From Candidatus Omnitrophota bacterium (GTDB taxonomy: Bacteria; Omnitrophota; Omnitrophia; Omnitrophales; Aquincolibacteriaceae): DNA of 64,000 bases. The notes under the pieces were generated by a model. That model saw nothing but the letters and a program-made list of their open reading frames with translations, had not been told where the DNA came from and searched no databases. Of this stretch, positions 43,170-64,000 are shown piece by piece (the first letter of the stretch is position 1; every line of letters starts with the position of its first letter). The stretch covers positions 136,572-200,571 of the forward strand of contig JAKLFP010000005.1 in assembly GCA_022711115.1 (NCBI GenBank), written 5' to 3'. The position numbers were made by a program, and so were the translations under genes.

Positions 43170-43191
43170 CATTAAAACAGAATCAGATTGA

Positions 43192-43572
43192 ATGCCATCG
43201 AAAGGAGATTCTATTTTTCGACCTTTATCGATTACTGTTATCTCATGGTTTATCATCAGCTCAAGCGTGGCAGGATTTTTTCTCACTATAGGCAATTTTA
43301 ATAAAGCCATAGAACAGCGCAATTTCTTTTGGGTCTGTTTTTACATTATCGCGCCGGGCGTAGCGATGCTCTCTGGTTTTTTCATGCTTCAAGGAAAGAA
43401 TTGGGCTAGATTTCTTTATGTTATTTGGAGTTTTTTTATTTCCATGGTCCCACACTTACTTTTGAGAGAACTAAAGGCTGGAGTAATTGTGCTGATTATG
43501 ATTTATGTTTTCTTGTTCCTTCCAAACGCTAATCGATATTTTTCAAGAAAAGAAGAGAGTTCGTTGCTGTGA
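43192..43572 (+). CDS. Hypothetical membrane protein
   Basis: The protein has 3-4 hydrophobic helices and sits in the same operon. Confidence 0.5.
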   Translation: MPSKGDSIFRPLSITVISWFIISSSVAGFFLTIGNFNKAIEQRNFFWVCFYIIAPGVAMLSGFFMLQGKNWARFLYVIWSFFISMVPHLLLRELKAGVIVLIMIYVFLFLPNANRYFSRKEESSLL

Positions 43573-47279: not shown

Positions 47280-48327
47280 TGAACTAGATCAGAAGATAGT
47301 CGGGTTGTTGAACGATCGCACAAAACTTGCGCTTGAGATCGGCAAAAAAAAGCTCGAGGCAGGCAAGGAAGTTTATGCCCCGGAGCGGGAAAGCGAAATC
47401 TACCAAAAAATCGATCGTTTAGCTGAAAAAGGTGTTTTGCCGAAGGATGCTTTGAAGGCGGTTTATCGCGAAATCATGTCCGCTTTGCTCGCTTTAGAAA
47501 AACCGTTGACCATTGCCTATCTTGGTCCTGAAGCGACCTTTACTCATTTGGCTTCTTTGTCAAAATTCGGGACGAGTGTTCACTATCGCCCTTGTGTCAG
47601 CATCAATGAAGTATTCCGTGATGTTGAGCAAGGTCGCGCGGATTACGGGGTCATTCCCATCGAGAATTCCATAGAAGGGGCTGTGAGCCATACGCTGGAT
47701 ATGTTTATTGATTCGGATCTGAAAATCTGTTCGGAAATTTATTCCGAGATCTCGCATTTCCTGATGTCCAATGCGCCAAGCTTAAAGCAGATCCGGCGGG
47801 TTTATTCCAAGGCTGAAGTGTTTGGCCAGTGTCGCCTGTGGCTTGAAACAAATCTTCATCATGCCGAGTTGATGGATGCTTCCAGTACGGCCGCAGCCGC
47901 AAAACGCGCGCAAAACGAAGACGGTGCGGCGGCGATCGGTTCCAAATTGGCGGCCACTTTATACAATCTGCCGGTTCTGGCCGAAGGGATTCAGGATTTT
48001 GCGCAAAATGTGACGCGGTTTCTTGTGATTTCCAAGCAGGTGCCGGCGCCGACGAAACATGATCGCACCTCGATCCTTGTATCCATTCGTGACAAGGTAG
48101 GAGCGCTTTATGAAATGCTAGGCCCTATCCGGAAATACAAGGTCAACATGACCAAGATCGAATCGCGGCCGTCCAAGAAAAAGGCCTGGGACTATTACTT
48201 CTATATCGATTTCGAAGGACATGTCCATAATGCCAGGATCCGCAAGATGCTCGCGGACATGGAAAAGAACGTAAAATTCATCAAAGTACTCGGTTCTTAT
48301 CCGATTTCGGGTAGTCCGAGGGATTAA
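47248..48327 (+). CDS. pheA: Bifunctional chorismate mutase / prephenate dehydratase
   Basis: An N-terminal CM_2 region (IRKKIDELDQKIVGLLNDR) is followed by a PDT domain (TRF) and a C-terminal ACT domain. Confidence 0.85.
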   Translation: MDLSQIRKKIDELDQKIVGLLNDRTKLALEIGKKKLEAGKEVYAPERESEIYQKIDRLAEKGVLPKDALKAVYREIMSALLALEKPLTIAYLGPEATFTHLASLSKFGTSVHYRPCVSINEVFRDVEQGRADYGVIPIENSIEGAVSHTLDMFIDSDLKICSEIYSEISHFLMSNAPSLKQIRRVYSKAEVFGQCRLWLETNLHHAELMDASSTAAAAKRAQNEDGAAAIGSKLAATLYNLPVLAEGIQDFAQNVTRFLVISKQVPAPTKHDRTSILVSIRDKVGALYEMLGPIRKYKVNMTKIESRPSKKKAWDYYFYIDFEGHVHNARIRKMLADMEKNVKFIKVLGSYPISGSPRD

Positions 48328-48378
48328 ACCCATAGTGACGAACGGCGCATCATCCATCACTCATTTTTTAAAAATAAC

Positions 48379-49479
48379 ATGATACCATTCAAAAAAAATA
48401 TCCAGAATATCAGTCCTTATGAGCCCGGGAAGCCGATCAAAGAGCTTCAACGGGAGTACGGGATTCGAAATGTCACCAAGCTGGCATCGAATGAGAATCC
48501 CCTCGGTCCTTCGGGCAAGGCCATCCGTGCCATGCGAAGAGCGATTCGTGATGCGCATCTTTATCCGGAGGGAAGCTGCTACTATCTGCTTAATCGTTTG
48601 GCGCAAGAATTGAAGCTGGATTCCGGACACATCATTTTTGGAAACGGTTCCAATGAGATCATCGAGCTTTTGGCGCGTGGATTTTTATCGGAAGGGGATG
48701 AAGTCATCTCTTCCGAGAAAACCTTTTTGGTTTATCCGATCCTCAGCCAGGTTTGCGGCGCGAAATTCCGTGCGGTGCCCATGAAGGACTACCGTTATGA
48801 CCTTCAGGCCATCCTTGAAGCGATCACGCCGAAAACAAAGCTTATCTTCATCGCAAATCCGAACAATCCGACCGGGACTTATGTGACGGCTGGTGAGGTC
48901 GAAGACTTTCTCGCCAAGGTCCCGGAGCATGTCGTGGTCTGTTTTGATGAAGCGTATGTTGATTTTGTGGATGCCGAAGATTTTCCGAAAATGCTTTCTT
49001 ATATTAAAAATGAGCATTCCAATGTTGTCGTGCTTCGGACCTTTTCCAAGGCCTACGGGCTTGCCGGCCTCCGCATCGGCTACTGCCTGGCATCCAAGGA
49101 GATGGTGGCTTATCTTCACAAGATAAGACAGCCGTTCAACGTGAATTCGATCGCGCAGGCCGCAGCGACAGCGGCTTTAGATGATGAATTTTTTCGGTGG
49201 CGCACCAAATGGCTGGTACTTCGCGGTAAAAAATTTTTCTACCGCCGATTCAAGAAATTAGGATTAGAATATTTACCGACCCAAGCCAACTTCATTCTTG
49301 TGAATGTGAGAGGCGATGGCCAGGAGATTTTTCAGGATCTGCTTCGTAGCGGGATGATTGTCCGGGCGATGAATGCGTATAACCTGCCGGATTGGATTCG
49401 AATCACGATCGGACGGCGCAGCCAGAATGTACAGCTCGTCAAACTATTGAAAGCGTCTCTAAACAGAAAAGCTGTTTAG
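48379..49479 (+). CDS. hisC: Histidinol-phosphate / aromatic aminotransferase (class II aminotransferase)
   Basis: The PLP lysine lies in RTFSKAYGLAGLRIGY, and the N-terminal LASNENPLGPS motif is present. Confidence 0.8.
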   Translation: MIPFKKNIQNISPYEPGKPIKELQREYGIRNVTKLASNENPLGPSGKAIRAMRRAIRDAHLYPEGSCYYLLNRLAQELKLDSGHIIFGNGSNEIIELLARGFLSEGDEVISSEKTFLVYPILSQVCGAKFRAVPMKDYRYDLQAILEAITPKTKLIFIANPNNPTGTYVTAGEVEDFLAKVPEHVVVCFDEAYVDFVDAEDFPKMLSYIKNEHSNVVVLRTFSKAYGLAGLRIGYCLASKEMVAYLHKIRQPFNVNSIAQAAATAALDDEFFRWRTKWLVLRGKKFFYRRFKKLGLEYLPTQANFILVNVRGDGQEIFQDLLRSGMIVRAMNAYNLPDWIRITIGRRSQNVQLVKLLKASLNRKAV

Positions 49480-49593
49480 ATCATACAACGCACAACGAAA
49501 AAACGCATTGTTTGTGATGGAATGTCGTGCTGAGAAACGCTCTAAGCAGATGAAATATTTTGAGTCGAGTCGTTTATAAGGAGAGCAAACCAC

Positions 49594-50610
49594 ATGATCA
49601 TTGTTCTTAAGAAAAATGCAACGCCGCAAGAACTGGAACACATCTGTCAAAAGGTTCGTGAACTCGGGCTGACACCGCAGGTGTCACGAGGCATCGAACG
49701 GACGGTGATCGGTGTGATCGGACAAGAGGAAAAACTCCAGGTCCAGCCGCTGGAGGCTTTTCCAGGTGTCGAATCGGTGATGTCGATTCTCAAGCCGTAT
49801 AAACTGGCGAGCCGCGATTACAAGAACGAAAACACGGAATTTGAAATGACGCATGGCGTGAAAGTCGGGGCCAAGAAGATTGTGGTGATGGCCGGGCCGT
49901 GTTCTGTGGAAAATTATGATATGCTTCTTCATCTTGCCAAGTCCGTCAAAAAAGCGGGTGCAACGTTTCTTCGGGGCGGGGCTTTTAAACCCCGCACTTC
50001 GCCCTATTCCTTTCAAGGATTGGGAGAGGAAGGTTTAAAGTATCTTCGGCAGGCAGCGGATGAAACCGGGCTTTTGGTTGTGACCGAAGTGATGGATACA
50101 CGCCAAGTGGAGCTCGTATCGCAATACGCGGATATGCTTCAAATCGGGGCACGGAATATGCAGAACTTTGATCTTCTCAAGGAGTGCGGGATGACGAAAA
50201 AACCGGTCCTTCTCAAACGGGGCCTCAGCGCTACGGTGAAAGATCTTTTGATGTCTGCCGAATATCTTCTCTCCCGAGGAAATTTTAAGGTCATGCTTGC
50301 CGAGCGCGGGATCCGGACTTTCGAGACCGCAACCCGTAATACACTGGATCTCAATGCGATACCGGTCATCAAAAAAGAAACACATCTGCCAGTACTAGTG
50401 GATCCGTCGCATGGCACCGGGTACAGGGATTTTGTAACCCCTATGGCAATGGCTGGTGTGGCAGCCGGGTGTGATGGGCTCATGGTCGAAGTCCATCCCT
50501 GTCCGGAAGAAGCGAAAAGTGACGGCGAACAATCGGTAGTACCGGGTCAATTTGAGGAAATGATGAGAAAAGTCCGCCTTGTGGCCCAAGCGGTCGATCG
50601 CGACATTTGA
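49594..50610 (+). CDS. aroF: 3-deoxy-7-phosphoheptulonate (DAHP) synthase, class I-beta, with N-terminal regulatory domain
   Basis: The KDO8P/DAHP TIM-barrel motifs (GPCSVE, KRG and DPSH) are present. An N-terminal extension of about 70 aa matches the regulated Thermotoga-type enzymes. Confidence 0.8.
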
Positions 50611-50705
50611 TGTGCGTCATGAGAAACGGTCACTGTACACTGTAAAAGCTGCCGCTTGTGCGTTTTGCCTTGAGACTTAAACCAGTGACAAGGATGATAA
50701 AGCCT

Positions 50706-51539
50706 ATGTTTAAGAAGATTGCAATTATAGGATTGGGACTGATGGGCGGCTCACTGGCTGCTGCCTGCCGGGAAAAATTGCCAAAAACGCGGATTGTCGG
50801 GATTACCCGTAACCGCAAAGCGCTTTCCTTTGCTAAAAAAAACAAATGGATCCACGAGGGATCGCGTGAGTTACGTTCGGGCGTCCAAGATGCGGATCTT
50901 ATCGTTCTATGCACACCAGTCGATACTTTTCCCTGTTATCTCAAAGAAATCGACCGTTTCTGTAAAAAAGGAACTTTGGTCACGGACGTTGGTAGCGTCA
51001 AGGCCTCCATTCAAAAAGAGGTCCATAAAAGGCACTGGCGGCATCTTTCCTTTGTTAGCTGCCACCCGATGGTGGGTTCTCATGAGCGTGGGATCCGGGT
51101 GTCGCATCCGGCTCTTTATGATGATGGATTGATGATTTTGGTGCGTGACAAGAGAACATGTTTGCGCAGCTACAAGAAGGTAAAACAATTCTGGAGCCGT
51201 TTCAGCGGAAGAATCGTGGAATTAAGCCCGAACATGCATGATAAACTTGTGGGGGAGGTCAGCCATTTGCCGCATGCCATCGCTGTTTGCCTGATGCATA
51301 CGGTTTCTAAGCCTGCGCTGAAACTTGCCTCGGCGGGTTTTCGGGATACGACGAGGATCGCAGCGTCCGATCCTTCGATCTGGGAGCCGATTTTTAAAGC
51401 CAATCAGAAATTTATTTTGCAGGACCTGAACCGCTTTGAACGGACCCTTAAAATTTTTAAAAGAAATCTTTCCGCAAGCAATCCCTATCCGTTGGTTCGT
51501 TTTCTGGATCGCGCCAAAAAGATTCGTTGTTCGATTTGA
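50706..51539 (+). CDS. tyrA: Prephenate dehydrogenase
   Basis: The N-terminal Rossmann motif IAIIGLGLMGGS is present, and the catalytic His lies in HPMVGSHE. ATG 50706 is preferred, with AAGGA upstream. Confidence 0.85.
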   Translation: MFKKIAIIGLGLMGGSLAAACREKLPKTRIVGITRNRKALSFAKKNKWIHEGSRELRSGVQDADLIVLCTPVDTFPCYLKEIDRFCKKGTLVTDVGSVKASIQKEVHKRHWRHLSFVSCHPMVGSHERGIRVSHPALYDDGLMILVRDKRTCLRSYKKVKQFWSRFSGRIVELSPNMHDKLVGEVSHLPHAIAVCLMHTVSKPALKLASAGFRDTTRIAASDPSIWEPIFKANQKFILQDLNRFERTLKIFKRNLSASNPYPLVRFLDRAKKIRCSI

Positions 51540-51719
51540 ATTTTAAGAGATTCGTTAAAATTTACTCTTCCCAAGATAGGAATCTATGCTATAATCCCTT
51601 TGTTCGCGCTGATTTCAGCAAAAGCCCAGGCGCTTTATGATGAAAGGGAAGCAACAGCGCGGATACCCATTTTCATGCAATCCTAATGGAAAGGGTACTC
51701 TCAAGGAGGTTTTTCCCTT

Positions 51720-53285
51720 ATGCATTCCCAATTTTCAGAGCTGTACGAGAAGTCTTTAAGCCGTGATATTTTAGTCGGCGAGGTTGTTAAAGGAACGGTG
51801 ATTGCCGTCCACGACCGTGAAGTCGTGGTGGATATCGGCTATAAGGCCGAGGGTATTTTGGCTAAAGATGAATTCCTGCAGCCGGAAACGCTGACGGTAG
51901 GTTCCGAGGTTGAAGTTCTTTTCGAAGGCTTTGACGATGTGGAAGGGAGTGCCATTTTATCCAAAAGGAAAGCCGACAGGCAAAAAACATGGAATGATAT
52001 TCTTTCGAATGCCGAAGAGGGTGCCATTGTGGAAGGACGCATTTCGCGTAAGGTCCGCGGTGGTTTCATGGTCGATATCGGCATGGAGGCCTTTTTGCCG
52101 GCATCGCTCGTGGATATTAAACCTGTCCGTAATCAGGATGCCTTTATCGGATTGCAGAGTAAATTTCTCGTCGTCAAGATCAATCACAAACGCAAAAATG
52201 TCGTTGTATCCCGAAAAGATCTCCTTGAGAAAAGCCGCAACGAAGCTCGAACGGAAAAGCTCAGCACGCTGAAGGTCGGGCAAGTTGTTAAAGGTAAAGT
52301 GAAAAACATTACCGATTTCGGCGTTTTCATCGATCTTGGCAATCTTGATGGTCTTCTTCATATCACCGATATGAGTTGGGGACGCGTTTCGCATCCTTCG
52401 GACCTTGCAAAGCTCGGGGATGAAATCGAGGTGGTGGTCATTGCCATTGATCAGGCGAAACAGAAGATTTCCCTTGGTCTCAAGCAAAAAGGTTCAGATC
52501 CTTGGGGAACGGTCGATCAACGCTATTCCATCGGCAATCAGGTTTGCGGGCGTGTGGTGAATATCCTTCCTTATGGTGCATTCGTGGAACTGGAACCCGG
52601 TATTGAAGGGCTTGTTCACATCAGTGAACTTTCCTGGACCAAACGGGTGAATCATCCCAGTGAGATTCTCTCCATCGGGATGGAATTGGATGTTGTCATT
52701 TTGAGTCTGGATAAAGAAGCTAAAAAGATTTCTCTGGGCGCCAAGCAGGCACAGGAAAATCCTTGGACTGCGGCAGCCAATAAGTATCAAGTCGGCAATC
52801 GTGTGACCGGGACGATTCGTAATTTGACGGATTATGGCGCGTTCATTGAATTAGAGCCCGGCATTGAAGGACTTCTTCACGTTTCGGATATTTCCTGGAC
52901 GCATAAGGTCGCCAAACCGTCAGATGTTCTTAAAAAAGGTGATCCGGTCGAGGTGATGATCCTGGCGGTGGATACGGAAGCAAAGAAGATTTCCCTCGGC
53001 ATGAAACAGCTTACCGATGATCCGTGGGTGGATCTTACGAAGAATTTTTTAACGGGCCTCGAACTCCAGGCAAAGATCACGAGGATTGTGAATTTCGGAC
53101 TTTTCGTGGAACTGGACAACGGGCTTGAAGGGTTGATCCACGTTTCTGAAATCCCTGATTGTTCGGGACAGGATCTCGCCAAGCAATATAAAATTGGCGA
53201 TACCCTTCGCTGCAGTATCCTGAATGTCGACCAAGAAGGCCGCAAGATCGCATTGACTTGCAAGAACGAATCCCTAAGTGCCTGA
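51720..53285 (+). CDS. rpsA: 30S ribosomal protein S1 (six S1 domains)
   Basis: Six repeated S1 OB-fold units with G.V..I..FG.FV...G..GL.H.S motifs are present. Confidence 0.9.
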   Translation: MHSQFSELYEKSLSRDILVGEVVKGTVIAVHDREVVVDIGYKAEGILAKDEFLQPETLTVGSEVEVLFEGFDDVEGSAILSKRKADRQKTWNDILSNAEEGAIVEGRISRKVRGGFMVDIGMEAFLPASLVDIKPVRNQDAFIGLQSKFLVVKINHKRKNVVVSRKDLLEKSRNEARTEKLSTLKVGQVVKGKVKNITDFGVFIDLGNLDGLLHITDMSWGRVSHPSDLAKLGDEIEVVVIAIDQAKQKISLGLKQKGSDPWGTVDQRYSIGNQVCGRVVNILPYGAFVELEPGIEGLVHISELSWTKRVNHPSEILSIGMELDVVILSLDKEAKKISLGAKQAQENPWTAAANKYQVGNRVTGTIRNLTDYGAFIELEPGIEGLLHVSDISWTHKVAKPSDVLKKGDPVEVMILAVDTEAKKISLGMKQLTDDPWVDLTKNFLTGLELQAKITRIVNFGLFVELDNGLEGLIHVSEIPDCSGQDLAKQYKIGDTLRCSILNVDQEGRKIALTCKNESLSA

Positions 53286-53295
53286 TCCAAAAAAG

Positions 53296-54546
53296 ATGAC
53301 GAATCCCCAGCACCGACGAGTCGTCATTACTGGTTTGGGGGTCGTTTCCCCGATCGGTTCCGGGAAAGAAACTTTTTGGAAAGCGCTGGTCGAGGGGAAA
53401 AGCGGTATTTCCAACATCACCTCGTTTGATACATCTGCTTTTACAACGCGTTTTGCCGGTGAGATCAAAGATTTCCAACCTACGTCATATATCCTTCCTA
53501 AAAAACTCAAACGCATGGATCGCACCACCCAATTAGCGGTTGTGGCCTCTAAAATGGCAGTTCAAGACGCGGGTCTCGATTTCCAGCAAAACGGTGGACG
53601 GGAAAGAACGGGCGTCATCATCGGAACGGCCCTTGCCGGTGTCGGTTATATCTTGGAACAATCGGTGATTCTTATGCAAAAAGGCCCTATGCGGCTTAAT
53701 CCCTTTACGGCCCTGGCGTCTTTTCCGGACGCTTGTGCCGGGAATGTTTCCATTGAATTGGGTGTAACCGGTCCGAGTTTTTCGATTGCTACCGCGTGCT
53801 CTTCAGCGTCTGACGCATGCGGCTATGCCTTTGATGCGATCCGGAGCGGCGATCTGGATTTTTTGATCATGGGTGGGGCGGAGGCCACTATTTTCCCGGG
53901 GATCGTGGCATCTTTTTGCGTTGCGCGTGCTCTTTCCACACGAAATGATCAACCGGAAAAAGCATCGCGTCCGTTCAGTATGGACCGTGACGGATTTGTG
54001 ATCGGAGAAGGTGCCGGCATGTTAGTGCTGGAGGAGTATGAGCACGCGAAAAAACGTGGCGCTCACATTTATGCTGAGATTCTTGGCCACGGCATGACCT
54101 GCGATGCTTATCATATGACGGCGCCGGACCCGGAAGGGCGGGAAGCAAGCCGCGCCATGCAACTTGCGATGAAACACGCGGGGATTGGGCCGCAAGAGAT
54201 TGATTATATCAATGCCCACGGCACCTCCACGCCTCTGAATGACAAGACCGAAACCCTGATCATCAAAAAAGTGTTCGGGTCTCGCGCCTATGAAATCCCT
54301 GTCAGTTCTGTCAAATCCATGATCGGGCATTTGATCGGTGCTGCCGGCAGTGTCGAGCTCATCGCCGCACTCCTTGCCATGCAACACCAGGTCATTCCGC
54401 CGACCATCAACTACACAAGCAAAGATCCTGAATGTGACTTGGATTATGTGCCGAATACGGCGCGGGAAGCCAAACTTCGGATTGTGATGAAGAATTCCTT
54501 TGGCTTCGGCGGGAAAAATTCCATCCTTATCCTCAAAAAAGTCTAA
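53296..54546 (+). CDS. fabF: 3-oxoacyl-ACP synthase II
   Basis: The Cys-His-His triad context is present (ACSS, HGTST, GH.IGA.G). The start at 53296 (MTNPQHRRVVITG) is preferred. Confidence 0.9.
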   Translation: MTNPQHRRVVITGLGVVSPIGSGKETFWKALVEGKSGISNITSFDTSAFTTRFAGEIKDFQPTSYILPKKLKRMDRTTQLAVVASKMAVQDAGLDFQQNGGRERTGVIIGTALAGVGYILEQSVILMQKGPMRLNPFTALASFPDACAGNVSIELGVTGPSFSIATACSSASDACGYAFDAIRSGDLDFLIMGGAEATIFPGIVASFCVARALSTRNDQPEKASRPFSMDRDGFVIGEGAGMLVLEEYEHAKKRGAHIYAEILGHGMTCDAYHMTAPDPEGREASRAMQLAMKHAGIGPQEIDYINAHGTSTPLNDKTETLIIKKVFGSRAYEIPVSSVKSMIGHLIGAAGSVELIAALLAMQHQVIPPTINYTSKDPECDLDYVPNTAREAKLRIVMKNSFGFGGKNSILILKKV

Positions 54547-54598
54547 CCTTATCAGCCTATCGAGTATAGCTGATTGCCTATAGCCGTTGCTATGAGCT

Positions 54599-55498
54599 TT
54601 AAAGAACTTCTTCGTTGATTTCTTCGGCGGGATTTGCTGCTGTGCGATTCTTTCGGTGGGAAATAGTATCAACACCTGAACCATCGAGGATGCCGCGTTT
54701 GGATGCTTCAATAAAGGCCACCATATGCGCTACTTCTTTGCTCTTGAGATCCCGCTTGATCGTTTCCAAAGCCTGACTGACATTCATCCCTGAGCGGTAA
54801 AGGAGTTTGTAGGCTTCCTTGATCTCCATGCGGACCTCGGGGCCGATGCCCGCGCGTCTCAAGCCGACTACATTGATCCCCTGAGCGATCGCAGGACGCC
54901 CGCCGCAAATAACGTAGGGAGGAATATCTTTATTAATCGCTGAAAGGGCGCTGACCATGGCAAGCGTTCCGATGCGCGTGAATTGGTGGAACCCTGTCAT
55001 GCCGGAAAGGAACGCGCGATCCTCCACCTCACAATGGCCGGTCAGCGATGCCTGATTGACCATGATGATATGGCTGCCGAGATGGCAGTTGTGCGCGATA
55101 TGGCAGTAAGCCATAAAAAAATTCGAATCACCAATGATCGTAGCCGTACCTTCCTTGGTGCCGCGATGGATCGTGACAAACTCCCGGATTTCATTTTTAT
55201 TCCCGATTTTTGTGAAAGTTTCTTGTCCCTGGTAGGCCAGATCCTGAGGGGCATGGCCGAGCACGGCATTCATGTGGATTGTATTGTAATGACCGAGTTC
55301 GGTGCCCCGAGCGAGATAAGCGCCGGCCATGATCTTATTATGACCGCCGAGCTTCACCCCATCTTCAATAATGACATTGGGACCGATGGTGTTGTTAACC
55401 CCAATTTCGACGTTTTTACCGATTATGGCTGAAGCATGAATTTCTGACACGGTTCCAATCCCTTTCAATGTCTGCGAAGTGGCCCCCATACGGATCAA
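54599..55498 (-). CDS. lpxA: Acyl-ACP--UDP-N-acetylglucosamine O-acyltransferase
   Basis: The hexapeptide-repeat left-handed beta-helix is present, with a C-terminal helical domain. The catalytic His lies in MAYCHIAHNCHLG. Confidence 0.85.
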   Translation of the reverse strand: MIRMGATSQTLKGIGTVSEIHASAIIGKNVEIGVNNTIGPNVIIEDGVKLGGHNKIMAGAYLARGTELGHYNTIHMNAVLGHAPQDLAYQGQETFTKIGNKNEIREFVTIHRGTKEGTATIIGDSNFFMAYCHIAHNCHLGSHIIMVNQASLTGHCEVEDRAFLSGMTGFHQFTRIGTLAMVSALSAINKDIPPYVICGGRPAIAQGINVVGLRRAGIGPEVRMEIKEAYKLLYRSGMNVSQALETIKRDLKSKEVAHMVAFIEASKRGILDGSGVDTISHRKNRTAANPAEEINEEVL

Positions 55499-55885
55499 CT
55501 ATAAAAAAATCTAAAATTGTAATGGTCGGAATTATAACATAGGAGATAGCACGTAAAAAATACCTTTTTAACACTCAGTGCTAAATCGGGTTTATTGCCA
55601 CCCGAGGTCAATGTGTCGATTTTAATCCTTGGAGTTGTCAATAAGTGCTTCCAGAGGCTAAATGTTGCTATAAATGGCTATGGAGTATATCTCGATCTCA
55701 TAACCCGTTATAAAATAAGGTGTTGCAAACTAAAAAAAAGTAAAATAAATTGAATCCCTCTCTTGAAAAATCGAATCTCATCGAGTATATTTTCGCATAC
55801 TTTTTTTAAGCCTGAGAAAACACAAGAAAATCTATTTTGAAATCAGAAAAGAAAAACTCCCTTCACGTATAGAATGGATTACTGA

Positions 55886-58800
55886 ATGATTCGACAAAAA
55901 ACATTCAAATCGTTCATCGCGTCTTTCACGGCCTTTACTTTTTTCTTCACGAGTCTCGGTTTTAATGGTTCTCTTTTTGCCGCGGCGACCATGCCCGAAG
56001 TATCCCTGCCTTATCAGGCTGTTTTAGGCCAGAATATTCGCATTTCGCTTCCGCAAGATATCGGCAAAATCGAAAATTTGAAAATCGGAAAAAGCGGTCT
56101 TCCGGTTGTTTTCCACATTCAAACCGCGCACGGACACTATCAGGCCCAAAAACAAATCCAAGCCATTCTGAAACATTTGGATCAGAATTATGGCGTGAAG
56201 ACAGCGTTGGTCGAAGGCAGTGCTTTCAAGCTCAATCCGGAAATCCTGCGTTTCTTTCCTTCCGACATGGATCTGACCTTGAAGATTGCCGATGAACTCA
56301 CCAAGCAAGCGCTTGTCAAAGGCCCGGAGCTTTATCTGCTTGATTCCAAGGGCAGTCAGGCTTTCGGTATCGAAAAGGCCGAAGCCTATCGCGCAAACCG
56401 TGCGTCCTTTGTCGACGTTCTAGAAGAGCAGAAAAAAACAGGTCAGTTTCTCGCCGATATGAACATGAGTATCGAGCGCCTTTCAAGTCATTATCTGAGT
56501 AAAGACCTTCGCGATTTTCTCAAACGCCTTGAATCTTTCGAAAAGAACCAACTGCCGTTTGAGCAATGGCTTTCTTATCTTAAGGAGGAAGCCCAAAAAC
56601 GTCTGAATGTCGATTTGACGCAGACGGGTTATCAGGTCGAATGGCCGATGCTTGTCCGCCTTTTTAAGGTTCAAGAACTCTCTCGAAAACTAGATAAGCA
56701 GGCTTATCAGAAGGAAAAAGACTTGTTTCTCAAAGCCATCCGTTCTATTTCAAAAACCACTTATGCAGAGATTGAAGCACTTCTGAACAATCCCAATCTT
56801 GCCCGCCAGTTGCCGGATCCGGAAACCAGTCTTTTGTTCGAGGACATGGTTCGTCAACTGCCGCGTCAGTTTAATTATGAGGCCTTTCCGAATGTGCGCT
56901 ACTATGCCGGTTGTTTGATCCTTCAAAGCGAGATAAAGGCTGTAGGGCTTATGTCGGAGACCCAAAAGCTTACGGATCTTATCACTCGGAAACTGACCCG
57001 AAATAAAGAGGAACACAAGCTTTTAACCCTTTTAAAAGACCACCGTCTTCTTCAGAAACTGTTTGCTCTGGAGTTACTGCCCGCCGATTACGAACAAATC
57101 CTCGAACGGGGGATGACGGATGCCGGATGGAGCTTAAAACCCTCCGAACTTGTCAAACGCTTTAGCCCTGCTATTTTCCAACCTTCGTCCAATATCCGAA
57201 GAGTCAAAGATGTAGCATTTACCCACATCGCCGATCTCGACATCCTTTTCAACAAGGCTATGAAATTTTATAAAGGTGTCAAAATGCGCGATGCACTTAT
57301 GGAACAGATGATCGAACAGCGTCTCCAGGAGACAGGCGCCACGAAAGTCGCGGTCATCACCGGGGGCTTTCACTCCGGGCCTTTTCAGGATTATTTCTCG
57401 AATAAAGATTATACGTACGCGCTCATTTCTCCGAAGATTTCCGGGGCGGATGACAAGGGCCATGAGGCTTATATCCAGAACATGATCGATTTTACTTTTC
57501 ACCCGGTCAAAGCGGCTACCATTGAATCAGCATTTTCTGCCGATCTCGGGATGAATGAAACACAAGCCGCCTCGGTTGGTCTTTCTCTCAGAGTTGCCCG
57601 CACAGCATTTGTTTCTGCGGTACGTGAAATCGTCGCCCATGTGGCCCAAGATCACAAAGACGCCTTTGCCGTTCTCCGCGCGCATTTCAAGAAAGTATTC
57701 GAAACGGGAGAACTTGCCGCGGTGCCTCAAATGGTCCCGATCCCTTCGCCGGCCACAGCGCCTGTTTTGAATGCGCGGTCCGAAGTGCGGGCCGAAGCGA
57801 CTGAGAATATTGATTTGAAAAATGCGATTCTTTTAGCCCTTATCAGTCACCTTCAACTTGCGGATATCGATCGAAGACTTCTCGATACAGATATTGTGGA
57901 AGAAATCCAGGGTAAATTGACGCTCCCCGCACGGCGCTTGGACGCGTTGTTTCAGCGGCATAAAGGGCAGCCTATTTTGAATGTTCAGGGGGCACAGAGT
58001 GTGGCTCGAAGTTTTGATCTGTTTTTGAGACGAAAAGAGGAAGTGGATCTTTATAAGACGCAGTTTTTTGAAATCCCCAAAACAGCCTATGTCGTTGAAG
58101 TCAAAAGTAACCCTAAAAAACCGGTTGAACCCGATATTTTTGGTACGGATCAGGATGCCCTGCGAGAACAGATCAAATTTATTTCGATTCTTAACCATTT
58201 GACACAGCCCGGGAAACAAAATCTCTTCAACAAATTTCTCGGGCATCCTGATGTCCAATATTACAAGACGATTCGCAAGGTTCGCGAAATGTACAAGCAA
58301 AAAGAAGGTCGAGGGCAGAATGACCAACTTGTGATGGGAGAAATACCCACGCTTGCGACTTTTGACCTTTTCCGGCAAAGGCTAAAAGAAGTGCTCAAGG
58401 GTGAAGAGTTTCTTGCGGAGGATGATGTGAAATTCATCAATCGCTTGAAGGGCGAAATCGACCGATTCATCGATTTAAACGATCTCATGAGCGAACTCCT
58501 TCATCAGGCCATGGACCGCGATTCGATTTCCCGTGAAGATGCGAACATTCTTCTTTATTTGCAGCAGGTGGGGGTGGGGGTGGTCAGCGAAGAAGTCGCT
58601 CAGGCAATCAAGAGCGATACCCATTATGTTAGTCTCGGCGCTTATAAGTATGGGTTGCAATATAACCCTGGCCGTGCTAAACGGAGCGGACTTTTTAAAG
58701 GGCATATGGTGGGAAGGCAAACGGAAACGATTGTGGCAGAGTCTTATGTCAATGATTTCCTCCCGCTTCAACGGCATCTGCGTGCCGGTAAAGCCGATGC

Positions 58801-61800
58801 CGGACTTCGCATCAGGGAACTTGCCAATCCCTATCCGCATAAATTTGCCAGCCGTAATACGGTTTTTGATCCGATTCAGCCCCAGGTCGTAAATCTTGAA
58901 GACCTGGAAAGTTTGTTGCGCAATCTGAGAGAAAGTACACCCTCCGGTGAACCGACGCGGTACCGCGGATTTTTTAACGGGCCATTCGCTGGTTTTACCA
59001 TCCCGCATCTTCATTATCAAGGTTTTCTCGGTGAAACCAAGATGGAAGAAGCCTTGAAGCAGGAGGGCGCGCTGGAACTGTTGGGTGTCGATAAAAACAA
59101 TATTAAACATTTCCGTCTTAATAATGAATTTTTTAAAGACAAAGCCCAATTTCCGTTGCGTTCCACCATAGTCATTGAAGGAAGAGATCCTGAGGCTACG
59201 GCGCAAGCGGTCATTGAAATTTTGAAATTAGCTAATGACAAAGAAAAACTAGGCAAAAAGAAAAAGTCCCTTCCCATTACCAAAGAATCTCTTTTTACCT
59301 ACAATATTCTTTTTTCTGATAATGGCGAATTTTCTCGCGTCTATGTGATGATGAATCGCATTGTGCTTGATCCGCTGAATCCTCCCGGAAGCCTTACGGA
59401 AAGGAATACACTCGTCTATTCTAATAAGGAAGAGCATAAGGAAAGAGTCAAAGCATTAAAAAGCGAATTGAAAAAAATCCGCCAGAAATTTCCGCCACTC
59501 TGGAAAAAACATGGGCAAATTGAGGGGAAGGCAGAGAAAGAGGCGTATCTAAAACAAGAGATCGAACCCTTGCAGAAAGAATACGGTAAAAAAGTCACGG
59601 AGGCTATCAAGGAAACCGTCATTCTCTTTCAAGGAAGACCTGCTAGCGTGGAGATGACCGATCTTCTGATCTTCGGGGATCCCAACCAGGAAAAAAGTTT
59701 TAAGACGATCCTGGAAAGCGCGGATTTACAACGGTACGTGATTGATGAAGTTTTTAACGAGAGGGTGTATCCGGATTTTGAAGACTTAATTAAAAAAGTG
59801 CAAGCTTCCTTGACATCTGGAGCTGTTCGTTCCGAGGTACGTTCACCCGATCAAATCCGGGGATTGCCAACCCTGGCAATACCCGGATTTGCCAAGGGTC
59901 GCTCGGAGGCGCACAGCAGTCTCCGCACTGAGAGTGACAAAGCCACCGTACGTGCTGAGATGAGGGCTGATGAAAGCCGTAACAAGAGACCTTTCCAGGT
60001 CGTAAAATATTTAGAGGCCGTGACAGAGGGAGGAAGCGTCACTTCTCCGGAATCTCAACCATTTCATGGTCAGGTGGGAGCCCGACCGGATGCGCCCTCG
60101 GTGCATTTAAGCAATCGACAGATTGCAGGCGCAGTCGGAAAAATGAGAAAAACTTCTGGTCGTTCGGAAGCGCGAAACGAGAGTAAATGGCATGAATTGC
60201 AGAGACAAATACAAGCTGTGGTTGATGCCCGTGAGGCAGTCATCAAGGGCCTGCAAGATGATCATCATCAGGCCGTTGCTGCTTTGCATCGTGAACTTCC
60301 GGGTAAAGAAAATGCCACTGCTCGTGCTTTGCGTATCGAACTCATGCATGAAGATCTTGAAAAGGCCGTCCACAAAATTAATCACGATGCTGGACGTCAG
60401 ATCGAAAAGCTGAATGTGCGGCAACGGCAACTTTCCGACTCCCGCTCCGAAGTAAGGAGCGCGGTATGGCCCAAGGATTCGGTTATTTTGAAATCCCAAT
60501 ATGAAACTTTGACACCCCCGCAACAAGAGGTGGTAAGGCAAGTGACGGAATTGCTTGATAGTGCTGGCAGTCATGTCGCAAGGTATAAACCGACCGTGAA
60601 ATATGCCGAGTTGACGGGTGGCAGCCAGACTTTTCGCGATTGGCGGGATATCCATCCAGGTGAATGGGATCTTAATGAAATTTTGGCGGGGATTCCTCTT
60701 GAGGCGGACTGGCAGCGAAATCTTATAGCGGAACATTTTTTTGATGCTTTTCGCAGGGGTTATGACCGGACGAAATCAGGAGTCATGAGCCGGGCACGCG
60801 GTTTGATTTTATTTCAGATTCAACGTCAGCCGGATGTGGAGCCGGATGCTTCCGTGACGACAACCGTTTTTCGCTATTTTAAAGACGTGCTTCCCGTTGC
60901 TAGCGATCTTCACCGGAAAATAAGTCATCAGGAGACATGGTTAAAACGAATGGGAGGTTCCGAGCTTTATCATTTGATCGTTCTCATTGAGCCGGATCCC
61001 ATGGTGCCGTATGTTGACGCCAATCGGTATGCCGGCATTTTACATGTCCTGGCATTGGGCAAAAAGGCTGCTGAAAAACTTCAATCGCTTTTGACAAATA
61101 ATCCCGAAGCTCTTCCCTATGCGCTTCGTAATAGCACAAGAACGGCTTTTAAAAATACTTATGAGGGATTTGTCAGGCCGACGTTGGACGCCGCCGGATT
61201 TTACAGGCCTTTGAATGTCGAAGACACTGCCCAACGCGATTTCGTCATTGCCCAGACAGATCAGCCTGCCCGCTCGGAGGCACGTAGTAGCCTCAGCACT
61301 GAAAACACCACGGGTGCTGTACGTGCCGAGCTGAGGGATGCTGGCAAACTTGCTATTGAACTTTCCATTTTGTCAGGGCTTCTTTATCCCGAGGAAAACC
61401 GAAAACCGGCAGGTTTTCAGAATACCCGGCTTTTGAGCCAGCTTAATGCGCCATTATTTGGCGGAATTCTTTTTGAGACTTTGAGAATTGTGGATCAGGA
61501 GATCGCAAAAGGGTCTGACGCGAAAGGATCCGCGGCGTGGAGAAAAATAAAAGCTGCTTATACAAAAGAACTAAAACAAACCATCAACCGGGAAAACAGG
61601 TCAAACCGGCTATTATCGGATCATCAAGCCGCGGATTTTTTAAGACGTTTTACGGCCGATCTTGCGACTGCCAGGATCTTTGCCCGCTCGGAGGCACGTA
61701 GTAGCCTTCGCACTGAGAGCACCACGGGTGCCGTACGTGCCGAGGTGAGGGGCATGGAGGTTGTCAAGGATGGTGTTCCGCTCCGTTCCGAAGTACGGAG

Positions 61801-64000
61801 TTGGGATGCTGAAATCATGAAGCAATTCAAAGCGATGTTTAGCAGAATGCTTGGCGCCAATTTGCCGGTTGGAACAGATATCACTATGCATACGCGCCTG
61901 AGGGAAGATCTGGGGATGGATGCGGATGGTTCGACAGACGATTTCAGCTTCTTTTTGCCCGATGCACTTGTGGGCACATTTAATCTTAACGTTCCGCAAA
62001 GTGAAATAAACCGCTGGCAGACGGTGGGCGATGTTTTCAACTATGTCAAAGGTCAACTTATCCGCTCTGGGGTGAGGCATAGAGGGTTATTGCCGGAACC
62101 GTGGCAGCGGATTACTCATGAATCGTTAGACAAGATCCGGCCAGGAACGGTTATTTATCATTGGATCGGATCACGGAGCACATTTGAATATTTAGGCCGT
62201 TCCGCGGACGAAAAGTTCTGGCTGATTGCGTTAAATCAAGATAGGCAGAGGATGCAGGGCGCTCGGCCCGTTGCAGTGGAAAGTCGCGAATTGATAGGGG
62301 GGTCTTTCTTGCAGACTGGCCTTTCCCGTTCCGAAACAGAGACCGGAGTTTGGGTTCCTTTAGATGCAGATAAAAAGGGAGCCTTGATTATTCCAAAGGG
62401 CAGTCGTGTGCGGAAGGGAGAAAGAGAGTACACGGTTACCGAACGGATTGCATCCGGCGCATCCGGGAAAGTGGAGTTCACTTATGGCTTAAAGGAGTAT
62501 CCGGCCACTTCGAGGCCGACAACCGCTCTTGGGTTGACGGAGATGGTGAGGGCTGGCTACGAGCTTTTCATTCCTTTTGTAAATGTTGAAGAGCTAAAAA
62601 CTTCGGAAGTCATTCATTCCGAGGTGCGGATTACCGGATCAAAACCCGGTTTTGAATCTCGCGGCCCCGAAGCCGAAAACCGGGTTTTGGATTCCCGCTC
62701 CGAGGTGAGGACTGCAGGACCGACGTTCCAGGGAGTGAATCTTTTTAAGGTGGTTTTTGGAAATTCAGCAAACACAAATTTGGCAATATTGCAGGAAGCC
62801 GTCAAAAAAAATTCGCCCCAAAGTCCCCAAATAAGCAAGGCAATACATGACGTAGCTCCATCGGTTTCCAAGAGAAAATTGCCGCTTCCTTCCGGAAATT
62901 TGACAGCATTCTCATTTGATGACGGGGTTCTTGAGCGGGTTTATGTTGCGGCCGATAAAGGGCAGCTAACGATTACTCAAATACTCGAATCGATTCTCAT
63001 GCCCGAGTCGAATAAATCGATGGTCTTGCAAGTCAGTAACAAGGGCGCGTTGCTTACTTTTTACCGGGTTGAGGGCGAATCGCCGATGGTGCAGCCGTTT
63101 TTCAAAAAGCTGAATCTTGCTTTGATTCGGGAAGTGGAAGTAATACCTGCACAGCCGGGCGGGTATCCTTCGATGATCTTAAAGACCTCACGGAGGCAAA
63201 GTCCTGAACTTCAAAGGTGGATCACCGCATTTCAACAGGCGCAGCGACAGGACGATTTCAGGGTGAGCGTGCTGATCCAGGCTGTGCAATCCACGCGACG
63301 TTCCGAGGCGCGAATTATCGGATCAAAACCCGGTTTTGAATCTCGCGGCCCCGAAGCCGAAAACCGGGTTTTGGATTCCCGCTCCGAGGTGAGGGCCATG
63401 GAAGAAGTCAGGGTCCTTGTTGCCGATAAGCCGGAAAGCGGGATGGCGGGATTAGAGAAGCTTATTGAAGGGTTTGGAAAAAACGCGAAGCTTGTGGGGC
63501 TTGCGGGGGTCGGTAAAGATGAAGCTCAACTCCGCAAGACGATTGAAGAAAACCATCCGACGATCGTGACAATCCGCGGTGTGACGAAGGCTTTCAAAAA
63601 CCCTGAATTTGTAAAATGGGCGGGCACGCAGGGCGTCCGCGCCATCATCCGCTACGGCGCCGGTGTTGACAATGTGGACCAACCTGCTGCAAAAGAAGCG
63701 GGCATCTCGGTCATCCCGACGTTTGGCAACGCCAACTCCGTCGCTAATTTTTCACTCCGTTTTTTAATCGCCGCTTTGAATCTCTCGGAACCGGAAGAAC
63801 AGGGGCCTGTGAAGGATCTTTCGGTAGAGGATCAATGGAAAGATGTTCTGGATGTGCCGTTGAGCGACATTGAGCAGGCGCTGGCAAGTTCGCTTGCAAA
63901 AGGCCGCGGAGAAATGATCAGCGGGCATCAGCAAAAAGTTTTCCGGGCGATTTCCGGCGAACGTTTGATCGCTCTTGTAAAAAAACTTGAAGGTAAAACG
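55886..64000 (+). CDS. Giant multidomain ORF (more than 2700 codons, 3' end beyond the window). It has an N-terminal signal peptide, recurring R-S-E-[V/A]-R linker motifs, a carrier-protein-like module near 61800-62050 and a D-2-hydroxyacid-dehydrogenase-like module from 63398
   Basis: I translated codon by codon from ATG 55886 to 64000 and found no in-frame stop. An in-frame TGA lies immediately upstream. Every minus-strand ORF in this span is short. The carrier-like domain reads ...REDLGMDADGSTDDFSFF.... The terminal domain reads MEEVRVLVAD...RYGAGVDNVD...AKEAGI.V..T.G.NA.SVA. Confidence 0.75.
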   Translation, partial: MIRQKTFKSFIASFTAFTFFFTSLGFNGSLFAAATMPEVSLPYQAVLGQNIRISLPQDIGKIENLKIGKSGLPVVFHIQTAHGHYQAQKQIQAILKHLDQNYGVKTALVEGSAFKLNPEILRFFPSDMDLTLKIADELTKQALVKGPELYLLDSKGSQAFGIEKAEAYRANRASFVDVLEEQKKTGQFLADMNMSIERLSSHYLSKDLRDFLKRLESFEKNQLPFEQWLSYLKEEAQKRLNVDLTQTGYQVEWPMLVRLFKVQELSRKLDKQAYQKEKDLFLKAIRSISKTTYAEIEALLNNPNLARQLPDPETSLLFEDMVRQLPRQFNYEAFPNVRYYAGCLILQSEIKAVGLMSETQKLTDLITRKLTRNKEEHKLLTLLKDHRLLQKLFALELLPADYEQILERGMTDAGWSLKPSELVKRFSPAIFQPSSNIRRVKDVAFTHIADLDILFNKAMKFYKGVKMRDALMEQMIEQRLQETGATKVAVITGGFHSGPFQDYFSNKDYTYALISPKISGADDKGHEAYIQNMIDFTFHPVKAATIESAFSADLGMNETQAASVGLSLRVARTAFVSAVREIVAHVAQDHKDAFAVLRAHFKKVFETGELAAVPQMVPIPSPATAPVLNARSEVRAEATENIDLKNAILLALISHLQLADIDRRLLDTDIVEEIQGKLTLPARRLDALFQRHKGQPILNVQGAQSVARSFDLFLRRKEEVDLYKTQFFEIPKTAYVVEVKSNPKKPVEPDIFGTDQDALREQIKFISILNHLTQPGKQNLFNKFLGHPDVQYYKTIRKVREMYKQKEGRGQNDQLVMGEIPTLATFDLFRQRLKEVLKGEEFLAEDDVKFINRLKGEIDRFIDLNDLMSELLHQAMDRDSISREDANILLYLQQVGVGVVSEEVAQAIKSDTHYVSLGAYKYGLQYNPGRAKRSGLFKGHMVGRQTETIVAESYVNDFLPLQRHLRAGKADAGLRIRELANPYPHKFASRNTVFDPIQPQVVNLEDLESLLRNLRESTPSGEPTRYRGFFNGPFAGFTIPHLHYQGFLGETKMEEALKQEGALELLGVDKNNIKHFRLNNEFFKDKAQFPLRSTIVIEGRDPEATAQAVIEILKLANDKEKLGKKKKSLPITKESLFTYNILFSDNGEFSRVYVMMNRIVLDPLNPPGSLTERNTLVYSNKEEHKERVKALKSELKKIRQKFPPLWKKHGQIEGKAEKEAYLKQEIEPLQKEYGKKVTEAIKETVILFQGRPASVEMTDLLIFGDPNQEKSFKTILESADLQRYVIDEVFNERVYPDFEDLIKKVQASLTSGAVRSEVRSPDQIRGLPTLAIPGFAKGRSEAHSSLRTESDKATVRAEMRADESRNKRPFQVVKYLEAVTEGGSVTSPESQPFHGQVGARPDAPSVHLSNRQIAGAVGKMRKTSGRSEARNESKWHELQRQIQAVVDAREAVIKGLQDDHHQAVAALHRELPGKENATARALRIELMHEDLEKAVHKINHDAGRQIEKLNVRQRQLSDSRSEVRSAVWPKDSVILKSQYETLTPPQQEVVRQVTELLDSAGSHVARYKPTVKYAELTGGSQTFRDWRDIHPGEWDLNEILAGIPLEADWQRNLIAEHFFDAFRRGYDRTKSGVMSRARGLILFQIQRQPDVEPDASVTTTVFRYFKDVLPVASDLHRKISHQETWLKRMGGSELYHLIVLIEPDPMVPYVDANRYAGILHVLALGKKAAEKLQSLLTNNPEALPYALRNSTRTAFKNTYEGFVRPTLDAAGFYRPLNVEDTAQRDFVIAQTDQPARSEARSSLSTENTTGAVRAELRDAGKLAIELSILSGLLYPEENRKPAGFQNTRLLSQLNAPLFGGILFETLRIVDQEIAKGSDAKGSAAWRKIKAAYTKELKQTINRENRSNRLLSDHQAADFLRRFTADLATARIFARSEARSSLRTESTTGAVRAEVRGMEVVKDGVPLRSEVRSWDAEIMKQFKAMFSRMLGANLPVGTDITMHTRLREDLGMDADGSTDDFSFFLPDALVGTFNLNVPQSEINRWQTVGDVFNYVKGQLIRSGVRHRGLLPEPWQRITHESLDKIRPGTVIYHWIGSRSTFEYLGRSADEKFWLIALNQDRQRMQGARPVAVESRELIGGSFLQTGLSRSETETGVWVPLDADKKGALIIPKGSRVRKGEREYTVTERIASGASGKVEFTYGLKEYPATSRPTTALGLTEMVRAGYELFIPFVNVEELKTSEVIHSEVRITGSKPGFESRGPEAENRVLDSRSEVRTAGPTFQGVNLFKVVFGNSANTNLAILQEAVKKNSPQSPQISKAIHDVAPSVSKRKLPLPSGNLTAFSFDDGVLERVYVAADKGQLTITQILESILMPESNKSMVLQVSNKGALLTFYRVEGESPMVQPFFKKLNLALIREVEVIPAQPGGYPSMILKTSRRQSPELQRWITAFQQAQRQDDFRVSVLIQAVQSTRRSEARIIGSKPGFESRGPEAENRVLDSRSEVRAMEEVRVLVADKPESGMAGLEKLIEGFGKNAKLVGLAGVGKDEAQLRKTIEENHPTIVTIRGVTKAFKNPEFVKWAGTQGVRAIIRYGAGVDNVDQPAAKEAGISVIPTFGNANSVANFSLRFLIAALNLSEPEEQGPVKDLSVEDQWKDVLDVPLSDIEQALASSLAKGRGEMISGHQQKVFRAISGERLIALVKKLEGKT
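59900..59965. repeat. 66-nt in-frame repeat unit (encodes RSEA[HR]SSL[RS]TE...VRAE[MLV]R), divergent copy A
   Basis: It begins CGCTCGGAGGCRCA and ends GTACGTGCYGAGNTGAGG. It has a terminal inverted repeat in which GGCACGTA pairs with TACGTGCC. Confidence 0.7.
61271..61336. repeat. 66-nt in-frame repeat unit, copy B
   Basis: It is about 90% identical to copy C at 61685-61750. Confidence 0.75.
61685..61750. repeat. 66-nt in-frame repeat unit, copy C
   Basis: It is about 90% identical to copy B. It is followed 35 nt later by another RSEVR word at 61783. Confidence 0.75.
62617..62710. repeat. 94-nt in-frame palindromic repeat unit, copy 1 (direct repeats of CCGAGGTG[C/A]GG flank an inverted repeat made of AAAACCCGGTTTT and AAAACCGGGTTTT)
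   Basis: Its 3' 72 nt are identical to copy 2 at 63301-63394. It encodes SEVRITGSKPGFESRGPEAENRVLDSRSEVR. Confidence 0.8.
63301..63394. repeat. 94-nt in-frame palindromic repeat unit, copy 2
   Basis: It is near-identical to 62617-62710 and immediately precedes the Met of the dehydrogenase-like module. Confidence 0.8.

Follow-up and report, generated by a model that had tools for sequence, protein, structure and literature searches.

The window analysed here is a stretch of 64,000 nucleotides (nt) of genomic DNA from an Omnitrophota bacterium, the last 8.1 kb of which (55886..64000, plus strand) form the 5' part of a giant multi-module open reading frame (ORF). Translation of the window gives 2705 codons without a stop from the ATG at 55886 to the edge at 64000, as had been maintained in the original prediction, a reading of this DNA made from the sequence alone; the ORF was missing from the ORF list used there because frames running off the window are not listed. 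An exact protein match of the upstream fabF gene assigns the window to JGI metagenome 3300025706, contig Ga0209507_1000075 (153,287 bp). The gene call on this source contig yields a product of 10,238 amino acids (aa) that reaches the contig end, placing it in the class of proteins of at least 10,000 aa, and the locus L082 carries the frame at least 546 nt past the window, still open, with 2887 codons directly readable. The region comprises a head domain (S1) and the first eight modules (S2 to S9) of a gene of at least 10,238 codons in an Omnitrophota bacterium, and the joints between them carry a recurrent five-residue motif, R-[S/A]-E-x-R, which is the main subject of this report. A frameshift or assembly artefact is unlikely up to position 62041, since an independent Logan assembly (SRR4244739, locus L083) is 100% identical over 48138-62041; positions 62042-64000 are covered by the JGI contig only. 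Codon usage is of the coding-frame type in all nine segments.

In the form [RH]SE[VA][RH] the motif occurs 12 times, always in the giant frame, with copies starting at 57776, 59828, 59900, 60161, 60443, 61271, 61685, 61784, 62615, 62696, 63299 and 63380. About 0.017 copies would be expected from composition, and the other five frames of the whole 64 kb contain two matches, in line with chance. All twelve R/H-S-E-V/A-R copies of the original prediction were recovered, 0-4 nt from where it had placed them, as were its three V-R-A-E-x-R copies (59948, 61319 and 61733). For R[SA]ExR the ORF holds 13 copies compared with 0.15 expected, and the maximum among 2000 residue shuffles was 4. A protein search with the whole ORF (2705 aa) returned 120 long proteins of 1,500-4,700 aa, those with a source label being nearly all from Omnitrophota/Omnitrophica and one from Verrucomicrobiae. 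Across 121 long Omnitrophota proteins, R-[S/A]-E-x-R was found 607 times compared with 17 expected, while variants with K for R or D for E stayed at background level (5-17). Head motifs aside, the commonest 5-mers in these 121 proteins are RSEVR, RSELR, RSEAR, RSEMR and RAEVR; the residue at position 4 can be V, L, A, M, S, I or T, and outside the motif nothing is conserved except that small residues are preferred. When one genome of each species was scanned, the head turned up in at least 528 stretches, frequently with several copies in the same genome; 80 of these loci (L001-L080) were retrieved with 10-kb flanks, beyond which the head-bearing ORF runs in most of them. In these 80 loci the head-bearing ORFs contain 384 motif copies in 187.7k aa, compared with 33 copies in 220.7k aa of other ORFs, and 18 of those 33 sit in four other long ORFs. 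The junction motif is specific to these long ORFs and is not equally frequent in unrelated genes, a point on which the original prediction had staked itself.

R-[S/A]-E-x-R marks module boundaries. In an all-against-all BLAST comparison, 31-32% of the ends of high-scoring segment pairs (HSPs) fell within 15 aa of a motif, compared with 9-12% when motif positions were randomised, and only 108 HSPs spanned a motif, compared with 238 +/- 16 in the control. Whole enzymes are bracketed in this way in the relatives: in P0064, UDP-glucose dehydrogenase (profile position 1) begins 7 aa after RSEAR and hexokinase stops 3 aa before RSEQR, and in P0005 the start of a glycogen-synthase-like enzyme lies 10 aa past RAEAR, with the next motif coming after the enzyme. 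In the window, the last module, S9 (63395..64000, running past the window), is D-isomer 2-hydroxyacid/phosphoglycerate dehydrogenase-like, as originally proposed, with a match to Pfam PF00389 (2-Hacid_dh) at E 5.9e-9; it is 46% identical to residues 920-1126 of P0012, in an alignment that begins at RSEVR in both proteins, and in a weak PDB match to phosphoglycerate dehydrogenase the N-terminus of the enzyme lies within about 10 aa of the motif. At the other end of the string, RSEVR at 57776..57790 separates the head from S2 (57791..59827; 679 aa, with an HLHYQG motif and no Pfam match). P0121 is a free-standing 759-aa homolog of S2 with 57% identity, whose first residues align just after the motif position, and P0122 carries an S2 homolog behind an S1 head, with RSEIR at the same S1|S2 junction. 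The suggestion that segments between motifs might be found as separate genes is thus borne out for S2, and together with S9, P0012 and the motif-bracketed enzymes of the relatives these cases support the view that the ORF consists of independent, protein-sized modules parted by a recurrent motif. Successive motifs mostly lie 75-600 aa apart, and a smaller number form close pairs separated by 11-45 aa.

P0121, the only free-standing S2 homolog (L081:10001-12280, ENA ERZ25039512 contig_25553), lies among transposase genes (DDE_Tnp_1, IS66, ISL3) and an RHS-repeat fragment, and may be a broken-off or mobilised module. A HIT/GalT-like identity was considered for S2, as IPHLHYQGF (aa ~1100) is H-x-H-x-Q-like and recalls HIT/GalT nucleotidyl phosphorylases, and was rejected for lack of Pfam support. 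No homologs were found for S3 (59966..60160, 65 aa) and S4 (60176..60442, 89 aa), which are joined by RSEAR at 60161..60175; RSEVR at 60443..60457 forms the joint between S4 and S5. The next four modules are orphans: S5 (60458..61270, 271 aa, with coding-frame codon usage), S6 (61337..61684, 116 aa, lying between two linkers of type A, described below, that are 92% identical), S7 (61799..62614, 272 aa, without Pfam or HMMER match) and S8 (62711..63298, 196 aa, between two type-B linkers). An HMMER search of the S5-S8 stretch against 1.84 billion representatives gave no convincing homolog and two weak matches, both in S5. The original reading of S7, which starts MKQFKAMF, as a carrier protein was abandoned, as there was no Pfam PP-binding match at E<=10 and no homolog to support it; a single-sequence AlphaFold model of S7 was uninformative (predicted local distance difference test score, pLDDT, 51). 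Over the 2705 visible aa, 2-Hacid_dh is the only Pfam domain. Three antisense ORFs (181-243 aa; minus strand, 57833-58378, 58475-59206 and 60107-60736) overlap the giant ORF and are most likely spurious by-products of the long sense frame.

The original prediction held that every motif copy is written by one conserved DNA word, which did not stand: CGYTCSGAGGYRMGG matches only two sites, 62696 and 63380, and the wobble positions differ between copies. Those in the window vary between GAA and GAG, between CGG, CGT and CGC, and between CGN, AGG and CAC in the last codon, and a 10-nt core with one mismatch is found 21 times window-wide, barely above the 13.8 expected by chance. Over 383 sites in the 80 loci, the wobble positions of Ser2, Glu3 and Arg5 are at background codon usage, and selection on the peptide is therefore favoured. 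In junction-crossing alignments of diverged relatives, R1, E3 and R5 are 73-80% identical, compared with mostly 18-35% for the ten flanking residues on each side, and the 36-nt sequences flanking the motif on each side bear no relation to one another in more than 99% of the site pairs of a genome. Together these results indicate that the five residues themselves are the conserved object and that the motif is kept mainly by peptide-level selection.

The head domain S1 (55886..57775, aa 1-630) has an N-terminal hydrophobic helix at aa 5-24, an alpha/beta core and a disordered tail from about aa 537. In the family the head is about 560 aa long, stands at the N-terminus without exception and opens with a hydrophobic, signal-peptide-like segment. 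In the present protein the N-terminus MIRQKTFKSFIASFTAFTFFFTSLGFNGSLFAAA was modelled as the helix 5-24 and would be either a signal peptide or a signal anchor; a Kyte-Doolittle scan (threshold 1.6) flagged neither this nor any other segment of the 2705 aa, and the same scan flagged the N-terminal hydrophobic segment in 78 of 120 homologs. An AlphaFold2 model of the head (20-sequence alignment, pLDDT 77) predicts an alpha/beta core split by a long helical insertion, with the disordered tail leading into the first motif. The alpha/beta fold is probably shared with the Tiki/TraB/EreA/ChaN superfamily, and the head is probably a Tiki/TraB/erythromycin-esterase-like hydrolase fold, an assignment that is only probable because Foldseek and a sequence profile, both searched against the PDB with the head, returned nothing relevant. 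No Pfam model reached its curated threshold: PF04187, which Pfam describes as 'Tiki superfamily, ChaN', matched 4 of 20 members at E 0.0016, and DUF5682 scored 14.3 bits compared with a cutoff of 26. Compared with Tiki/TraB/PrgY/GumN, erythromycin esterase and ChaN, the head thus differs in falling below every Pfam threshold, in its negative PDB searches and in a core split by a helical insertion of about 300 aa. Its conserved residues are H77 (at least 90%), H82, E110, E163, R468 and H496. The superfamily is made up of endopeptidases, esterases and haem binders, and a protease function does not follow from the fold by itself. By fold the head is a candidate protease, and a separately encoded enzyme would fit the distribution of motif types, described below, better.

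Behind the head, the architecture is one of conserved head and hypervariable cargo, with rapid turnover of modules. The homology of the 120 long proteins to the query is confined to the first ~560 aa, and their downstream Pfam content differs widely, consisting mostly of cytoplasmic-type enzymes and regulators. The domains include phosphoglucomutase (PGM), UDP-glucose pyrophosphorylase (UDPGP), hexokinase, glutamate dehydrogenase (GDH), phosphoenolpyruvate carboxykinase (PEPCK), pyruvate phosphate dikinase (PPDK) and acetate kinase, as well as PAS/histidine kinases and, frequently, HEAT repeats. Turnover is seen most directly at one conserved position. The rpsA-fabF-lpxA neighbourhood followed by a head-bearing giant gene (window 51720-57775) is kept in 12 loci (L001, L002, L004, L006, L007, L009, L010, L011, L015, L019, L021 and L074); the heads of these positional orthologs are 35-65% identical, and 64 of the 66 pairs have no homology past the head. 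The titled records of metagenome-assembled genomes among the 80 loci are Omnitrophota. The best identity to the head of the present protein is 50-60%. Head-bearing giant genes stand in tandem in L086 (JAZDJU010000098.1), L013 and L039; in L086 the tail of a motif-bearing gene is followed by a 4251-aa gene and, after about 175 nt, by a 5358-aa head-first gene.

Upstream of the giant gene lies an AT-rich intergenic region (55499..55885) with a promoter-like site at 55763-55791 (10/12 match), which parts it from a divergent lpxA-like gene on the minus strand (ORF call, 54599-55498). Elsewhere in the window, the G+C content dips to 0.387 and the AT/GC skew shifts at 42001-44000 and 38001-42000, around two minus-strand ORFs at 38893-40758, while the rest of the window is uniformly plus-strand with positive GC skew.

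Where RSExR is missing from a head-bearing protein, a different recurrent word often stands in the corresponding positions, the end of the head among them. [A/G/S]xSLG is found in P0051, P0065, P0077-P0079, P0082 and P0090, RPExR in L053, L035, L072 and P0053, and GARLA in P0116; RSExR and xSLG are mutually exclusive within one protein. Paralogs of one genome share the word type though their heads are only 29-51% identical to the query: three loci of RA.bin90 carry RSExR, and two loci of CAYQTU carry RPExR. P0051, with xSLG, nests among RSExR heads in head-similarity clustering. A short, strict and genome-specific word is what would be expected of a recognition site that co-evolves with a trans-acting factor.

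Our preferred interpretation, held tentatively and with somewhat less than even confidence, is that the gene encodes a polyprotein-like string of modules in which the junction motif is a candidate recognition site, most likely for proteolysis. The head, a hydrophobic helix plus about 560 aa, would precede a string of complete proteins, hypervariable in content and made up of enzymes, regulators and orphans, with R-[S/A]-E-x-R at every joint either singly or as two copies around a short spacer. The motif would be recognised by a factor specified by the genome, most likely an endopeptidase, which would cut the polyprotein into its modules and remove the spacers between paired sites. Proteolysis is judged the likeliest form of recognition because whole enzymes are bracketed by motifs and a free-standing homolog starts at the site, because excision of the junk-like spacers would explain why sites are paired around them, and because the tie between motif type and genome resembles that between cleavage sites and their proteases. 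Two properties of a polyprotein are present, namely several independent proteins in one ORF and a conserved short site at the junctions.

Several observations weigh against this interpretation. Codon choice in the motif is not fully free: AGR makes up 4% of the codons at Arg1, compared with a background of 24%, AGY makes up 7% at Ser2, compared with 33%, and the wobble of position 4 favours G. The bias at Ser2 could reflect the disconnected codon families of serine. Arg5 uses AGA/AGG freely (32%, compared with 4% at Arg1), an asymmetry for which peptide-level selection does not account, and the biases at Arg1, Ser2 and position 4 would allow for some contribution from the nucleotide level or from history. 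The type of motif does not follow the phylogeny of the heads, and this speaks against the head being the specific protease; nor do the flanks of the 80 loci share a conserved protease, their recurrent neighbours being lpxA and fabF. Many deep-branching family members have no detectable junction word. Finally, a signal peptide at the N-terminus would imply export of the enzymes, an odd destination for those that depend on NAD or ATP.

A possible, though unlikely, alternative is that the product is never cut and works as a membrane-tethered string of enzymes, in which R-S-E-x-R binds a partner (a chaperone, a translocase or a scaffold, for example the HEAT-repeat modules) or sets the conformation of the linker. 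Peptide conservation, boundary position and genome-specific type would fit any specific recognition event, and HEAT-repeat domains are frequent in these proteins. According to a 2026 preprint, 94% of Omnitrophota long proteins carry a transmembrane helix or signal peptide, and an inner-membrane-anchored reading is discussed there for part of the catalogue (bioRxiv 10.64898/2026.06.07.730766). An uncut tether is harder to reconcile with the paired motifs around junk-like palindromic spacers, which are easier to understand if both sites are cut and the spacer discarded, and with the free-standing S2 homolog that begins exactly after the motif position; no partner is known.

The spacers just mentioned also bear on a second alternative. 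Five linkers of the window hold two or three motif copies around a spacer, and the lowest-energy 80-nt windows of the ORF fall in these spacers, where the palindrome arms are 14-18 nt long. The composite linker at 59828..59965 consists of RSEVR (59828), a palindrome at 59852-59891 with 18-nt arms that are 94% complementary, RSEAH (59900), a type-A spacer and RAEMR (59951). The type-A linker at 61271..61336 reads RSEAR, SSLSTENTTGAV, RAELR, and the one at 61685..61798 runs from RSEAR to RAEVR and continues through a short spacer to RSEVR at 61784; these two type-A linkers are the ones that are 92% identical. Type B is represented at 62615..62710 (HSEVR, a palindrome at 62640-62689 with perfect 14-nt arms, RSEVR) and at 63299..63394 (RSEAR, a palindrome at 63324-63373, RSEVR), the first being 97% identical over 94 nt to the copy at 63301. 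Copies of type A were found at 59894-59971, 61265-61342 and 61679-61756 of the window, and in two other genomes, at L086:9654-9731 and at L087:6208-6279; by manual count, the DNA at window 59900 and in L086 is about 85% identical, where the heads are about 59% identical in protein. A two-helix structure for these copies pairs 94.9% of the cells, compared with 24-47% after sliding of the partners. Compensatory changes are seen in 7 of 20 pairs, in some cases with a change of amino acid, among five copies that are not independent of one another. These data are suggestive of type A being a structured RNA or DNA element within the ORF.

A palindromic family with the translation ...KAKTPSSILHP... 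recurs across several genomes, in linkers as well as in surface loops of the head domain. Outside the window, in-frame palindromic inserts lie at residues 3272-3314 and 3845-3899 of the L086 protein and in the head loops of P0005, P0017 and P0084. In linkers, palindromic inserts are usually flanked by two copies of the junction motif, which may represent either a duplicated target site or two sites for excision. The composite linkers suggest in-frame palindromic or structured elements that are tolerated at junctions rather than a general rule, and in this limited sense they partly rescue the earlier impression of conserved DNA. An origin of all junctions from mobile linkers or miniature inverted-repeat transposable elements was ruled out, as the flanks are unique in more than 99% of pairs, and is retained for composite linkers only.

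The second alternative, which we consider improbable, is that the motif is the footprint of a process acting on nucleic acid, either the joint of in-frame insertion, swapping or duplication of modules or an element of RNA processing or structure, with the peptide being incidental. It would accommodate the absence of homology beyond the head in 64 of the 66 ortholog pairs, the bracketing of S6 and S8 by direct repeats of linker DNA (92-97% identical), the avoidance of AGR and AGY at positions 1 and 2, and the features of the composite linkers, that is, the lowest-energy windows of the ORF and the conserved type-A DNA with its two-helix structure and compensatory changes. The type-A covariation comes, however, from five non-independent copies, and a set of 367 single-motif sites from other genomes shows no excess of structure once GC content is allowed for (p = 0.82), which rules out an RNA hairpin at every motif. 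Three of the five codons have wobble positions at background, more than 99% of site pairs have unique flanks, and the alternative junction words have nothing in common as nucleotide sequences. Substitutions to Lys and Asp, each one mutation away, are not tolerated. Searches of Rfam for known RNA families gave no match, and promoter- and terminator-like sites inside the ORF are at chance level.

A more speculative proposal, and a distinctly improbable one, combines both levels: the giant ORFs would be in-frame cassette arrays, a kind of 'translated integron' in which whole genes are captured, swapped and lost behind the conserved head. The junctions would serve both as DNA or RNA joints, through the structured type-A element and the palindromes with duplicated motif words on their flanks, and as peptide cleavage sites at which each module is later set free. 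If this were true, a single promoter and a single start codon would suffice for a tiny cell to express an enzyme repertoire that changes fast. No integrase-like gene was found among the recurrent neighbours of the 80 loci, single junctions show no excess structure, and a conserved hairpin, as attC-type sites between cassettes would form, is seen in the type-A linker only.

Highly improbable is the reading of the gene as an operon without stop codons, in which each module has its own internal start and the GAGG-containing motif acts as ribosome-binding site. An ATG does follow GAGGTGAGG after 5-6 nt at two junctions (61733-61756 and 63380-63400), and GAG is used in 8 of the 12 window copies, but in a set of 606 sites there is no enrichment of Met downstream of the motif (1.7x at the first position, 1.3x at the second and ~1x further on), GAG at Glu3 is at background (39% compared with 37%), the variable position 4 (V, L, A, M, S, I, T) destroys the Shine-Dalgarno match, and upstream ribosomes would read through in any case as there are no stops. 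The Shine-Dalgarno reading was ruled out by the first two of these results. An assembly or frameshift artefact, or a frame open by chance, deserves practically no credence given a second assembly identical to position 62041, 2705 stop-free codons, coding-frame codon usage in every segment and hundreds of homologous long ORFs in other genomes.

The gene itself is of a known kind, and no description of the junction motif and the head domain was found. Giant multi-enzyme ORFs are already documented in Omnitrophota, and a 'multi-enzyme metabolic cluster' class of giant proteins is described, in two preprints (bioRxiv 10.1101/2023.11.21.568195; bioRxiv 10.64898/2026.06.07.730766), so that the arrangement, which the original prediction called non-standard for bacteria, has precedents. 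The protein resembles this class (Nielsen & Lui 2026; West-Roberts et al. 2023) in phylum, by the taxonomy of its homologs, in its length above 10,000 aa and in its N-terminal hydrophobic segment, and its family does so in having cytoplasmic-type enzymes tiled along one ORF with much 'dark matter'; it differs in that the part within the window has one Pfam domain in 2705 aa. Features of the archaeovorin/Dockerin type (West-Roberts 2023), namely Dockerin, TSP3, C39/S8 peptidase or SecA DEAD Pfam domains and further transmembrane-like segments, are absent from the visible first quarter or so of the gene. Both preprints (2023, 2026) treat domain content and topology, and one of them (bioRxiv 10.1101/2023.11.21.568195 / 10.64898/2026.06.07.730766) names unknown cleavage points as an obstacle. 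A keyword search of both found no mention of a junction or linker motif or of a Tiki-like shared head; nor was the latter found in the wider literature on Omnitrophota and Tiki. That literature, subscription journals not being covered and a prior description therefore possible, gave no account of the junction motif, its lineage-specific alternatives or the shared head.

The five-residue signal provides concrete candidate sites. Giant ORFs can be divided there in silico, so that structures are predicted module by module; existing and new proteomes can be screened for termini at set positions; and co-variation with the type of motif offers a way to look for a cognate protease. With a head in common and modules that turn over completely between positional orthologs, these genes can be seen as loci of conserved head and variable cargo, a view that bears on the organisation and evolution of metabolism in ultra-small, host-dependent bacteria.

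Parallels to parts of this arrangement exist elsewhere. Rickettsia palindromic elements are selfish palindromic DNA inserted in frame into genes, and the spacers of the composite linkers are likewise strong palindromes translated in frame; they are shorter (40-70 nt), unrelated in sequence and usually placed between two junction motifs, and their mobility is putative. In the polymorphic toxin systems CdiA (VENN) and Rhs (PxxxxDPxGL), a conserved N-terminal part and a hypervariable C-terminal part meet at a short motif that has been linked to processing and to recombinational swapping. The giant proteins share with them the conserved N-terminal part, the hypervariable remainder and the short peptide motif at the boundary, but where CdiA and Rhs have one boundary and a toxin/immunity logic, the present proteins have many boundaries each and a motif type that goes with the genome, and immunity genes were not observed. 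In MARTX toxins and viral polyproteins, one very long ORF holds several independent functional modules, parted by short specific sites that a dedicated protease cuts, and module sets differ between strains behind a conserved N-terminal part. The Omnitrophota gene resembles these in carrying many independent modules in one ORF with a short site at the junctions, at which cutting is putative.

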